Below, piece by piece: positions 12,951-56,943 of a DNA stretch of 64,000 nucleotides (position 1 is its first letter; each line of letters begins with the position of its first letter). The position numbers and the translations under genes are program-made. Origin of the DNA: Nitrospirota bacterium (GTDB lineage: Bacteria > Nitrospirota > Thermodesulfovibrionia > Thermodesulfovibrionales > UBA9159); assembly GCA_963699545.1 (NCBI GenBank), contig CAVOUE010000006.1, positions 224,001-288,000 of the forward strand, given 5' to 3'. The notes under the pieces are model-generated. The model ran no database searches, had not been told where the DNA came from, and saw nothing but the letters and a program-made list of their open reading frames with translations.

Positions 12951-13367
12951 GTGAAGACCTTCGAGGTGATCGACATCTCAGGAGACGCCGGCATAAGGGC
13001 ATATGGAGGGACACTCCAGGACCTCTTCGTCAATGCCGCCATGGGGATGTACAGCCTCATCACCGACCCTTCAGCCATCAGGGAAGAAAGGCATATGGCG
13101 CTGGATATCGAGAGCCACTCCCTTGAGGGACTCCTCGTGTCGTGGCTCAACGAGCTGATATTCCATTTCGATACCTATGGATTTTTAGGGAAGACCATAC
13201 GCATAGCAACCCTCCGTAACAATACGATCTCTGCCCGCGTGTCGGGAGAAGAGTTCGACCCGGGAAGGCACGAGAGAAGGTTGCTCGTCAAGGCGGCGAC
13301 CTATCATCAGCTCAGCATAGAGAAAAAAGAAGGACAATGGGTGGCGGATATTATCTTCGATATTTAA
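12951..13367 (+). CDS. Archease
   Basis: D(I)SGDAGIRAYG, LLVSWLNELIF, VKAATYHQL, C-terminal IIFDI; immediately upstream of rtcB. Confidence 0.9.
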   Translation: MKTFEVIDISGDAGIRAYGGTLQDLFVNAAMGMYSLITDPSAIREERHMALDIESHSLEGLLVSWLNELIFHFDTYGFLGKTIRIATLRNNTISARVSGEEFDPGRHERRLLVKAATYHQLSIEKKEGQWVADIIFDI

Positions 13368-13409
13368 GTTGACACTCTTTGTGGCCTTGCCGCAGGGTTA
13401 CCCTATTGG

Positions 13410-13473
13410 GTCATTCCCGCAAAAGCGGGAATCCAGAAAAAGGCACTGGATTCCGGGTCAAGCCCGGAATGAC
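13410..13473. repeat. REP-like palindromic doublet (GTCATTCC family), copy A
   Basis: GTCATTCCCGCAAAAGCGGGAATCCAG-aaaaaggca-CTGGATTCCGGGTCAAGCCCGGAATGAC; near-identical copy at 29372-29433. Confidence 0.9.
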
Positions 13474-13537
13474 AAATAATAGATTTGGATACGCTGCGGT
13501 CTTGCCGCAGGGTATTTCATAGGAAGGAGGTGGTCTG

Positions 13538-14982
13538 ATGGGCACTGAGAAGCTCAGGAGAATCGACAGCACAAAGATAGAGATCCCCGCTGATTACAAG
13601 CCCGGCATGCGGGTGAAAGGAGTCATCTACGTCGATGATGTCCTCGAAAAAAAACTTGAGAGCTCGTGCATCGAGCAGGTAGCGAATGTCGCGACACTTC
13701 CCGGCATTGTGAAGGCATCCATGGCAATGCCCGACATCCACACCGGATACGGTTTCTCCATTGGGGGCGTTGCTGCCTTTGACCTGGAGGAGGGGATAAT
13801 CTCCCCCGGAGGTGTGGGTTACGACATAAACTGAGGGGTCCGCCTCCTCAGGAGCAACCTCAAAAGAGAAGAGGTGGCTCCGGGGATGAAGGGCCTCGTG
13901 GGGGTCCTGTACAATGAAATACCCTCCGGTGTGGGGTCAAAGGGGAATATCCGCCTCAGCGCGGAGGAAGAAAGGAGGCTCCTTCTTAAAGGCGCACGGT
14001 GGGCCGTGGAGAACGGCTACGGAGACGCCCTGGACCTCCAGAATACGGAGTCAGGCGGCTGCATAGAGGGCGCCGACCCTGACCTCATAAGCCGGAAGGC
14101 TTACGAAAGAGGACGGGCGCAGCAGGGGACCCTCGGATCAGGCAACCATTTCCTCGAAGTCCAGTATGTGGATGAGATCTACGACGGGAAGGCTGCCGAT
14201 GCCCTGGGCATCTTCATGGATCAGGTGACGGTCATGATACATACGGGGTCCCGTGGGTTCGGACATCAGGTCTGCACGGATTTTATCGAGGTGATGGAAA
14301 GGGCAGCGGCCAAATACCGCATCGAACTGCCTGATAAGGAACTTGCGTGTGCACCCTTCGAAAGTCCGGAGGCAAAGGACTACCTTGCGGCAATGAGGGC
14401 GGCAGCCAATTACGCATGGGCTAACAGGCAGTGCATCACGCACTGGGCCCGGGAAACATTCCTTAAGTTCTTATCCACGACACCCCGGGAGCTTGGGATG
14501 AGCCTCATTTACGATGTGGCGCACAACATCGCTAAGGTCGAAGAACACGTGATGAACGGAAGAACGAGAAAACTGATCGTGCACAGGAAGGGCGCCACAC
14601 GGGCCTTTCCCCCGGGCATCCCGAACTGCCGGAAGCCTACAGGAACACAGGACAGCCAGTGCTGATACCGGGAGATATGGGCAGGGCATCCTTTGTCCTC
14701 GTCGGGACGGAAAAGGCTATGCAGGAGACCTTCGGCTCAACATGCCACGGCGCCGGTAGGGTGATGTCCAGGCACCAGGCCATACGCCAGGCAAAAGGCA
14801 GGGCCATATGGCGTGAGCTCGAGGACAGGGGCATATTCGTTCAATCAGCGGGCAGGGAGACCCTGGCGGAGGAGATGTCCGAGGCATATAAGGACATATC
14901 CAATGTGGTGGACGTTGTTCACAATGCAGGGATATCGAAAAAAGTGGCGCGGCTGAGACCGATGGGGGTCATAAAAGGATAG
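13538..14982 (+). CDS. rtcB: RtcB RNA ligase with in-frame TGA (13832-13834) at the catalytic Cys position (candidate selenoprotein); one indel near 14615
   Basis: [77 protein letters not shown]. Confidence 0.93.
13851..13881 (+). promoter_or_regulatory. Candidate bacterial SECIS-like hairpin downstream of the rtcB UGA
   Basis: GGAGC-A-ACCTC [AAAAGAGAA] GAGGT-G-GCTCC, starting 16 nt after the TGA. Confidence 0.45.
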
Positions 14983-15013
14983 CGGACGACAGGGTGCGAA
15001 AAAGATCTGGCAG

Positions 15014-15914
15014 CTACTGCTGGAAGCCGATGGTCACTTCGTAACTATAAAGAACCTCTCCGCCCTGGCCGTCACTGAGCTGGACGCTGACAGGATGCCT
15101 GCCCGCATCCTTCTCCGCGACACGCCACGTTATCAAGCCGGTGGATTCTTCTATTGTCAGCCCGGCAGGGGCTTTCCTGAGCTTGAAGGTGACGGGGTCG
15201 CCGTCAGGGTCAGAGGCCTTGACCCTGAAAGAATACACGTTATTCTCAAACCTCTCATCGCCTCCCAGAGGCTTTGGCGCAGCGTTATAGATCTGAGTGT
15301 TTATCGTGATGGCCTGGCCGTCCGCTTCCCCGTCAAAAGGAGTGATCCTGACGGCTATCCTGTCACCCCGTTTAAAGGGTCCCTCAAGGCTGTTGTCTGT
15401 CCCTGAAGCATCTCCGTTCCTGAACCACTCATACTTGAAGGTCACCGTGTCCCCGTCCCTGTCGTCCCCTGCAAGATCCACGCGGAGATTATCAATTGCC
15501 CTGGGGAACCTCGGGATGATTTCGGCCCTTGCAACGGTGGGAAGAGCGTTCTTAACGACAACCTTGCCGGATTCGACCGCTTTTCCGTTCAGCGTTGCCT
15601 TCGCCTGGACAACATCCCCTTTCCTGAGCTCCTGCGAACTGAACTGGCTGCCCACCGCGCTGACAACGGGCCTGCCGTTCACAAACCACTGGATGCCGGA
15701 AACCTTGCCTGCGGGCGGTATTGAAAATATGCTCTCCCTTGTGGCATCGGCCGGAACGATCTGCAATGGCTGAAGCTGAGAAGCCACAGGAAGCGCAGAT
15801 CCCGTCCCCTGCGGCTTCTCGGATGAACACCCTCCGGACACGATGAACAGGCACGACAGAACGAGAACTGAACAAGCAGCACGTTCTTCCCGCCCTGTCT
15901 GCCAAGGCCGTCAT
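15014..15914 (-). CDS. Putative Ig/cadherin-like domain lipoprotein at the end of pilus cassette 1 (probable indel in the signal peptide)
   Basis: SGGC lipobox-like; DDRDGDTVTFKYEW, ASDPDGDPVTFKL...PAGLTIEESTGLITW; ATG 15914 follows the pilY1 stop. Confidence 0.7.
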
Positions 15915-28500: not shown

Positions 28501-29491
28501 TCTTCTGCGTCTTCTCCCCTAACTCAATGGAGCCCTCAAGACTTTCGATGGACGCACACTCAAAGAACCCTGCATTCCCCTTTTCGAGGAATGACCTCAT
28601 GGCTGATAAAATCTTATCTCTGTCAGCCTGGACCTTGCTCTCCGACTCCACTATCCAGTGAGGGGCCCAGAGGAGTTGAAAATTGCTGAGAACGCCGTTG
28701 ATGATATCCTGTGAAGTGACGCTCCTGAAGATCGCAAAGACCCTGTTACCCAGACCTGATGCCTTCAGATAATCAAGGAGCACCTGCGTGGCGCCTTCGC
28801 CGAGAACCGCAACCCTGGGCGGCGTCCCGGAAAGGACCTTGTCCACAGGCGCGGAAAAATCATAGCCGGCGATATGCACTTTGGCTGAAAGGTAAGTATT
28901 CCTCATGATATTTTCTGCCGTGGCCCTGATCTCTGGAGTAAGGTCATTGGCGTCTATGACAAAGGGGCCGCCCCTGTAATCGACCTGCGCCAGGCTCCCT
29001 GTAGATGTCAGAGCCTTGCTGTGGATTATCCGGACGGCAGCGTCCGCGCCCCCTTTTGCGATGGAAAAGTCGACGGCCTCCCCGCCTGCTTTGTCGGGGT
29101 TGATGATCCAGTACGCGGGCACTCCATTGGAGAGGAGGTCTAACACCATCCCGTAAGCATGAAAGATGCCCTGGTCATTTCTGTCCGTGTCGCAGCCTGC
29201 AGGGACAGGGGATACCTCGGGGTCATTGTTCGGCTGCCAGCACGGCTCCAGCGGAATGATGTAAGACCCGGCAGGAAAGGTCTTCGAGCCTGCAAGGGCT
29301 TTATCGTGGACAGTGAATACTATCACAAAACCCAAGACAATTACCGGGATGTGTATAAGGAGAAACACCTTGTCATTCCGGGCTTGACCCGGAATCCAGT
29401 GCTTTTCTGGATTCCCGCTTTCGCGGGAATGACGATAATGTCGCCTAATTATTGAAATAGCTCCTCGTAGTTTCTGCACAAGCTCCTTCAT
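25537..29491 (-). CDS. pilY1: PilY1-like adhesin #2 (about 1320 aa, one indel near 26265)
   Basis: RBS AGGGGG before ATG 29491; RLGGIEHSTPAV, FAGGDDGMLHAF, EIWAYIPSSLL, VDGSPAIGD, FGDMQGRLW, VFGTG. Confidence 0.82.
29372..29433. repeat. REP-like palindromic doublet, copy B, inside the pilY1 #2 coding region
   Basis: Minus strand GTCATTCCCGCGAAAGCGGGAATCCAG-aaaagca-CTGGATTCCGGGTCAAGCCCGGAATGAC, read as RHSRESGNPEKHWIPGQARND. Confidence 0.9.
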
Positions 29492-50410: not shown

Positions 50411-50756
50411 GGGGGCGAAAGGGCTCGACGGGGGTTATGAGGCTCAGGTGGCATGTCGTGGCTCCATCACCACGCAAAAAGATGGAAACAAACACAAAAG
50501 CCAACAACGAACTGGCACTCGCTGCTTAACTAAAGCAGCACGCTCCTTCGGGATCGCCTGTGTCTTGAAGAAAGCGTCGGAATGCAGGCTGGCCTCGAAT
50601 TGCTCCCCTGGATCTGAGGCGAGATAAAGGGGGATGGGATGATGAAAAGCCTGTCTGTCGGCGCTTCATCATCTGAGATTGAAATGACAGAATACACATG
50701 TAGAAGCCTGAGAGTAGTACTTTCGGACGCGGGTTCGATTCCCGCCGCCTCCACCA
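50411..50756 (+). ncRNA. ssrA: tmRNA, tag ANNELALAA* (50500-50529)
   Basis: 5' GGGGGCGAAAGGGCTCGAC; 3' GACGCGGGTTCGATTCCCGCCGCCTCCACCA; internal tag ORF; adjacent to smpB. Confidence 0.96.
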
Positions 50757-55992: not shown

Positions 55993-56888
55993 GTGAAGCT
56001 ATTTTTCAAGAACTTCTCTTTGGATTTTTCCAGGAAGACCCACGTCATGGGCATTCTCAACGTCACTCCCGATTCTTTCACGGACGGCGGTTTCTTCTTC
56101 AGGAGGGATTCTGCCATGGAACACGGCCTCAGGATGGTGGAAGACGGTGCAGACATCATCGATGTCGGAGGTGAATCCACAAGGCCGGGCTCTGAACCGG
56201 TGCAGTATGAGGAGGAGATCCGGCGGACATACCCGGTAATCGAAGCACTCGCAAAGAGAGTAAAAGTCCCCATTTCCATCGATACCTATAAGGCCGATGT
56301 GGCAAAAAGGGCACTGGATGCAGGGGCATCCATTATCAATGACATAAGCGGGTTGAGGTTCGACCCGGAAATGCCGAAGGTCGTCGCACAATACGTGTGC
56401 CTGTGGTGCTTATGCATATCAAGGGAACACCGAAGATTATGCAGGTCAATCCTGAATATGAGGCGCTGATCCCCGAGATCCTGGATTATCTGAGGGTCAG
56501 CATACGACTTGCCGTGGATGCCGGGGTGAGGGAGGACATGATTATTGTAGACCCGGGAATCGGTTTCGGCAAGACATTTGAGCACAACCTTGAGATACTG
56601 AAGGATCTCCGTGAGTTCACGCTCCTCGAAAAACCATTGCTCATCGGCCCGTCGAGAAAGGCATTCATAGGAAATATCCTCGGCAATGCCCCGTCATCAG
56701 AACGCATGGAAGGAACTGCAGCCGCAGTCGCCATCTCCATCATGAACGGTGCGAATATCGTGAGAGTTCATGATGTGAAAGAGATGGCGAAGGTGGCAAG
56801 GGTGGCGGATGCGATAAAGAGGGGCGGTATCCAGATGCTCACTGATCATTTGCGAATCCGTTCACACGTTTTGTCTTTCCGGGCTTGA
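55993..56888 (+). CDS. folP: Dihydropteroate synthase (indel near 56397)
   Basis: MGILNVTPDSFTDGG, DVGGESTRPG, DPGIGFGK, SRKAFIG, VRVHDV. Confidence 0.95.
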
Positions 56889-56943
56889 CCCGGAATGCTC
56901 GGGTCCTCTCCTGACTAGATTCCTGTGTTCTCACGGGAATGAT
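56873..56943. repeat. Degenerate copy C of the GTCATTCC doublet
   Basis: GTCTTTCCGGGCTTGACCCGGAAT ... CTAGATTCCTGTGTTCTCACGGGAATGAT. Confidence 0.7.

Follow-up and report, generated by a model that had tools for sequence, protein, structure and literature searches.

The window, by which we mean the whole 64,000-nucleotide stretch of DNA analysed here, carries a gene for the RNA ligase RtcB and, directly upstream of it and separated from it by a spacer of 170 nt, a gene for archease (Table 1), a protein described as a factor in RTCB activation (PMC10944509). The spacer includes a repeated element, approximately 66 nt long and able in principle to form a hairpin (13410-13475), which recurs with 83-96% identity at positions 29370-29433 and 56870-56896 of the window (both on the minus strand) and at C10:71359-71426 and C5:236178-236243 of the assembly. 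Further features of the window include a fumarate hydratase gene (Fumerase, PF05681; 11920-12762, plus strand), which is located upstream of archease and is unrelated to the rtcB finding, and a tmRNA gene with the tag peptide ANNELALAA (50411-50756, plus strand).

Table 1. Features of the archease-rtcB locus (positions are those of the window).
Feature	Position	Strand	Basis
Archease gene (RtcB activation factor)	12951..13367	+	Pfam PF01951, 136.9 bits, E 7.1e-40
Putative ribosome-binding site AAGGAGG, 7 nt 5' of ATG 13538	13524..13530	+	Read from the sequence
Whole rtcB, archease-adjacent	13538-14982	+	Sequence, ORF list, PF01139
rtcB N-terminal 98 codons, to ...GGVGYDIN	13538..13831	+	ORF list, Pfam PF01139, 1uc2 alignment
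In-frame TGA, proposed selenocysteine codon, residue 99	13832..13834	+	Sequence, alignment to Cys98, recurrence
rtcB middle part, original frame, GVRLLRSNL ... KGATRAF	13835..14608	+	1uc2 alignment, Pfam
Intragenic hairpin proposed as SECIS, 13 pairs, apical loop 13862-13870	13846..13885	+	Fold, RNAalifold, covariation
C5G3 run that breaks the frame, shorter by one base than CCN CCN GGN in relatives	14609..14616	+	Comparison with 8 relatives
rtcB C-terminal 123 codons, +1 frame, CHGAG ... VIKG, stop TAG 14980-82	14611..14982	+	Pfam PF01139

The rtcB gene was presented by ORF calling as an ORF of 98 amino acids (13538..13834) followed by a second ORF with a GTG start (13874..14665), and the two share a single frame, so that reading the TGA as selenocysteine (U) gives a continuous RtcB through this triplet. 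A first-pass annotation, made from the sequence, had placed this TGA at the metal-binding cysteine and had noted that the frame runs on past it as GVRLLRSNL, and both observations are borne out. In an alignment to the Pyrococcus horikoshii enzyme (PH1602, PDB 1uc2; E 1.1e-137 over residues 6-361), residue 99 coincides with Cys98, and the codon at this Mn-bridging position is TGA, no Cys codon being present. The four other metal ligands (D95, H203, H234 and H329 in P. horikoshii numbering; PMC10630183) are all identical, and the PF01139 profile is covered end to end by two frame segments (positions 1-309 with 426.8 bits, and 308-426 with 159.9 bits). The same annotation had described the remaining active-site motifs as intact, which holds for SGNH, IHTGS and VAHN; CHGAG, in the C-terminal part where the guanylylated His404 is expected, is present only in the +1 frame segment and is reached only across a frame break. 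From the alignment, we read the TGA as a putative selenocysteine codon, that is, as a variant of the metal-ligand feature and not as its loss. TGA is also the commonest stop codon of this genome, closing 1092 of 2075 long open frames, which points to site-specific recoding in rtcB and not to an altered genetic code.

If the TGA instead terminated translation, RtcB would be made as two polypeptides (98 and about 380 amino acids) or as a truncated C-terminal protein lacking the cysteine. Gene callers do yield such fragments, the GTG ORF from 13874 being one and a database protein of 361 amino acids from Ca. Magnetobacterium casense, which starts after the TGA, another. The latter is the only near-identical database protein for that organism's RtcB, the nearest full-length entries being 481-residue forms with approximately 71% identity, and in this one checked case the earlier expectation that annotation pipelines miss the gene proved correct. 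Against termination, every Sec form retains, at the protein level, the stretch that runs from the TGA to the next start (GVRLLRSNL...), and no conserved restart signal was seen. Moreover, the product would be without an essential metal ligand, Cys98 having been reported to be a ligand of each of the two Mn ions, and Cys-to-Ala mutants of three orthologues to be ligase-dead (PMC10630183). We regard termination at this codon as highly improbable.

The second defect of the gene, which the first-pass annotation did not include, is located at the run tttcccccgggcat (C-run 14609-14613, G-run 14614-14616), where one base is missing, and as a result the last 123 codons, including CHGAG, are in the +1 frame. 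The same assembly was found to be broken in genes expected to be intact: one tuf locus (C12:45900-47300, minus strand) contains frame shifts, the other (C11:13666-14521, minus strand) has stops inside the match, and selB (C3:319080-319150, plus strand) is split over two frames, indicating that the assembly is prone to indel errors. Other 'broken' genes in the window should be read with this in mind. In comparisons with four relatives, pN/pS was 0.09-0.17 in the N-terminal segment up to the TGA, 0.13-0.18 in the middle segment and 0.06-0.09 in the segment past the frame break, whose 123 codons retain 91-94% amino-acid identity to relatives. Relaxed selection downstream of the TGA, which had been raised earlier as a sign that would speak against recoding, was thus not observed. 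The break stands in the sequence as assembled, and the copy in this genome could accordingly be a true pseudogene with a real one-base deletion at 14609-14616 within an otherwise genuine Sec-RtcB family. This appears unlikely: the break falls in a homopolymer pair (C5G3), indispensable genes (both tuf loci) and selB are broken in the same assembly, the codons past the break are under strong purifying selection, and a PF01139 profile search found this to be the only rtcB copy in the genome. Given the indel-prone assembly, the homopolymer pair and the selection after the break, the frame break is very likely an assembly error lying outside the biology of the gene.

Recurrence of the TGA was examined by using the RtcB protein as query against 61 genomes from the order to which the window belongs. 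A match was obtained in 59, of which 30 had exactly one TGA inside a full-length frame, and in the window's own GTDB family (f1) a TGA was present in the RtcB frame of all 17 matched genomes. The codon in the Cys column was read in 30 fetched loci, covering 17 of the 30 TGA-bearing genomes, and was TGA in 17 and TGC or TGT in 13. One genome (G036) was observed to have two RtcB copies, one with Cys (contig C45) and one with TGA (contig C80). Carriers of the TGA form in the order include closed genomes consisting of a single contig, such as G024. In addition, one genome per prokaryotic species was scanned with a degenerate DNA pattern for G-[YF]-D-I-N-TGA-G-V-R, for which one or two matches would be expected by chance (our own estimate, assuming uniform base composition). 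At least 119 stretches from several phyla were recovered, and among the 119 matches listed all 119 had the RtcB context GVG[YF]DIN-U-GVR. Among these same matches, 89 stayed open for 375 codons or more before the next stop, 27 ran off the end of the locus and 3 stopped early, so that 89 of the 92 uncut stretches ran for at least 375 codons. The three early stops (L092, L119 and L121, after 133, 86 and 324 codons, respectively) are perhaps decayed copies or assembly errors. A TGA at the same column in homologues, named in advance as a check on the selenocysteine reading, was consequently found both within the order and far outside it. An origin of the TGA from TGC or TGT by faulty sequencing or assembly has a negligible probability: the assembly demonstrably contains indel errors, but the errors seen are indels and not substitutions, and the same TGA, with a matching hairpin, occurs in 16 other relatives' genomes and in at least 119 further species genomes.

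The hairpin in question occupies nt 14-54 downstream of the first base of the UGA, and the RNAalifold consensus from 17 Sec forms places it in columns 15-54, counted from that U. The RNA from the UGA onward folded with a minimum free energy (MFE) of -36.2 kcal/mol (z -4.0), and the hairpin of the window itself had an MFE of -23.3, compared to -10.4 (sd 3.0) for synonymous resamples, none of 1000 being as low. Across 38 distinct sequences with this type of hairpin (class A), 92.5% of cells were paired, compared to 41.7-55.1% when the 3' partners were slid, and 5 of the 13 pairs were compensatory, with 18 cells changed on both sides, a level reached by none of 500 shuffles. Over the hairpin columns the mean MFE was -23.0 kcal/mol in the Sec forms (n=38) versus -5.3 kcal/mol in 13 Cys forms from the window's order, and in 17 of 18 class-A genes the window holding the hairpin ranked first in stability among the approximately 23 windows compared per gene. 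No invariant G/U signature was found in the class-A apical loop, and an Rfam search of 13300-15100 with E values up to 10 gave no SECIS-like match, only four weak, unrelated families. The class-A hairpin is a putative binding site for SelB. Just one of the Cys forms (L028 in genome G030, around L028:1795-1860) has a Cys codon (TGT) together with a retained class-A hairpin (12 of 13 pairs, MFE -22.4), which suggests a recent switch between Sec and Cys.

In Sec-RtcB genes from other phyla a different and shorter hairpin (class B) was seen at about +18..+36, with apical loops that were mostly (A)GGUC(U), GGUU or AGUUU, and which we take to resemble the loop of the Escherichia coli fdhF element. 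Residues encoded by this segment shift together with the pairing (RSGLSR, KTSLVF, RTGLVL). Statistics for class B were weak: its hairpin ranked first in stability among the windows in only 11 of 68 genes (mean z -1.5), and the split into two pairing registers (63, 20 and 4 of 87) is circular as a test, having itself been defined by pairing.

The machinery for selenocysteine insertion was largely recovered from the genome that contains the window (3.04 Mb in 13 contigs, 87% complete). It contains selA (607 bits), the frame-split selB (302 bits) and a tRNA-Sec (72.9 bits) with the anticodon TCA (UCA), as well as a formate dehydrogenase alpha gene (FdhA; C9:40527-42527, plus strand; 876 bits) with one in-frame TGA. 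Three more matches resembling molybdopterin enzymes, each with a TGA, were located at C3:235018-235791, C1:8222-9121 and C3:433620-433904, and these loci and FdhA are candidates for further selenoprotein genes. In this 87%-complete assembly selD was found neither with the family model (best score 66.9 bits, relative to a cut-off of 125) nor by tblastn with the SelD of a congener. It was present in all five relatives searched, both congeners included, and selA was present in 58 of the 61 genomes of the order; we take the absence of selD from this assembly as a probable assembly gap. The search for Sec machinery proposed in the first-pass annotation was therefore answered positively for selA, selB, tRNA-Sec(UCA) and a TGA-bearing FdhA, and negatively for selD. 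In all five relatives the SelD frame (loci including L052-L054) contains one in-frame TGA, located in a congener near the N-terminus in the motif SSCAG-U-AAK, and these genes represent the known Sec form of SelD.

A different decoding of the UGA could also be considered, in which it would be read through as Cys, Trp or Gly by a near-cognate or specialised tRNA, or as Cys by a Sec-like pathway. Insertion of Cys would restore the canonical enzyme, and selD was missing from this assembly, but a canonical tRNA-Sec (UCA) is present together with selA and selB, a conserved hairpin occupies the position of a SECIS element, ordinary stop codons in this genome are most often TGA, and selD, with a TGA of its own, was found in five of five relatives. 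Such read-through is very improbable, although somewhat less so than termination. With recurrence at the same column, a covarying hairpin, Sec machinery and low pN/pS values all in evidence, the TGA in rtcB is neither an error nor a product of decay, and the reading as a selenocysteine codon is followed below.

In a sample of 301 genomes from the phylum, 248 were matched by RtcB, and among the 150 phylum matches listed (115 further) 25 carried the TGA. Among the matches listed, all 25 carriers belonged to the order or class of the window and none to other classes. The Sec rows outside the window's order, among the matches listed (n=101, NCBI labels), were distributed over Thermodesulfobacteriota (25), Nitrospirota (25), Acidobacteriota (21), Myxococcota (8), Pseudomonadota (5), Binatota (2), Eiseniibacteriota (1) and Planctomycetota (1), with 13 unlabelled. 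A FastTree phylogeny was built from 176 sequences, comprising 118 Sec and 58 Cys forms (the latter from 13 relatives' loci and 45 database proteins), with the Sec/Cys column masked. Sec and Cys forms were interleaved within the window's clade, requiring at least nine changes of state; the direction of change, from Sec to Cys or from Cys to Sec, cannot be read from this tree, as the rows from outside Nitrospirota were selected for TGA and are all Sec, and the root was not inferred. Among 100 sequences of the class-A clade, no column tracked Sec versus Cys near perfectly (the top frequency difference was 0.69, and the differences were mostly I/V and R/K), and we consequently claim no accommodating substitutions. 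Judging from these distributions, the gene in the window very probably belongs to a large Sec-RtcB group that comprises all 17 matched genomes of its GTDB family, scattered members of the order and class, and, with the shorter class-B hairpin, many representatives of other phyla.

Compared with known systems, the encoded protein is closest to Cys-type RtcB (P. horikoshii PH1602, PDB 1uc2/4dwq, and human RTCB), with which it shares family (PF01139), length and the Asp and His ligands, in addition to the adjoining archease gene; it differs in having a UGA and a downstream hairpin where these have TGC or TGT at the Cys98 position. A selenocysteine at the same residue has been engineered into P. 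horikoshii RtcB produced in E. coli, and that protein was reported to cleave itself (PMC4150793), which indicates that the substitution is not trivially neutral and not automatically tolerated; the natural genes, in contrast, are full-length, conserved and subject to purifying selection. The same source (PMC4150793) also describes Cys98 of the P. horikoshii enzyme as an intein splice junction. Intein-containing RtcB (NCBIfam NF038162) thus has an exceptional feature at the same cysteine, in that case a protein-splicing insertion and not codon recoding. When the window's protein was compared with NF038162, its best NCBIfam match, only the extein halves matched (569.9 bits relative to a cut-off of 1150), and this assignment was rejected. 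Four relatives (G027, G050, G168 and G201) have RtcB frames of 964-971 amino acids in which the match breaks near residues 80-104, and these probably contain an intein, inserted at the cysteine that corresponds to the proposed Sec. Among selenoenzymes, [NiFeSe] hydrogenase and formate dehydrogenase H have Sec in place of Cys as a ligand of the catalytic metal and are encoded by bacterial genes of the UGA/SECIS/SelB type. Both are redox enzymes, with Ni-Fe or Mo/W, whereas RtcB is a GTP- and Mn-dependent ligase that acts by nucleotidyl transfer and has no redox step.

No natural Sec-RtcB was found in the searchable literature (main texts of openly available papers), where the only relevant publication on RtcB and selenocysteine concerned the engineered U98 protein, and where no text combining COG1690 or UPF0027 with selenoprotein was found. 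The main text of a 2026 review of prokaryotic selenoproteins, including its family table (PMC13188914), contains neither 'ligase' nor 'RtcB', and the same applies to the main texts of deep-Sep, BSepDB, the preprint 'Eight unexpected selenoprotein families' and the Olavius symbiont selenoproteome; 'splicing' was likewise absent from those of these texts in which it was searched. Exception models in NCBIfam release 20 cover intein-containing RtcB, with none for a Sec form. As far as the searchable literature shows, Sec-RtcB most likely represents a class of enzyme that lists of selenoproteins do not yet include.

We propose that the gene encodes a full-length RtcB in which selenocysteine takes the place of the Mn-bridging cysteine, its insertion being SECIS-directed, with archease as partner and with an artefactual frame break, and we consider this very likely to be correct. 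The initial identification of the gene as a Sec-RtcB is in this way supported by recurrence, machinery, selection and the covarying hairpin, and from these we infer insertion of selenium at the UGA and a role for Sec. The UGA at 13832-13834 would be decoded by SelB with Sec-tRNA(UCA), directed by the hairpin at 13846-13885 within the coding sequence, and in the folded enzyme a selenolate would replace the thiolate between the two active-site Mn ions. The product would be an RNA ligase predicted to join 3'-phosphate and 5'-OH ends, working with the archease encoded just upstream.

Oxidised selenocysteine is reduced back more easily than oxidised cysteine, and a selenol is fully ionised at neutral pH. 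The metal-bridging cysteine of RtcB is reported to be prone to oxidative inactivation, and animals are described as protecting RtcB from oxidation of this cysteine by means of PYROXD1 and thioredoxin. Combining this sensitivity with the chemistry of selenium, Sec may help the metal-binding position to recover from oxidation, or make it less liable to be oxidised irreversibly, and may possibly also retune metal affinity. A broader reading, in which Sec-RtcB is a widespread natural answer to oxidative inactivation of the cysteine, with an easily restored selenolate that may also shift the metal preference of the binuclear site, is more tentative, and we hold it to be possible but somewhat doubtful.

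The TGA-containing form of RtcB occurs in at least 119 species-level genomes besides the relatives of the window. As the gene is widespread and was annotated as a fragment in the one case checked, RtcB may be scored as absent or broken in Thermodesulfovibrionia, in many Thermodesulfobacteriota and Acidobacteriota, and in others. Close relatives offer natural pairs of Sec and Cys enzymes for direct comparison, and the finding bears on a question under active study, namely what shields RtcB against inactivation by oxidation of this same cysteine. To our knowledge, nearly all known selenoproteins are redox enzymes. If the proposal is correct, RtcB would be the first selenoenzyme of RNA repair or splicing, with Sec in a non-redox active site for nucleotidyl transfer, and Sec at the Mn-bridging position would extend selenium biology to RNA repair and to the chemistry of tRNA and mRNA splicing.
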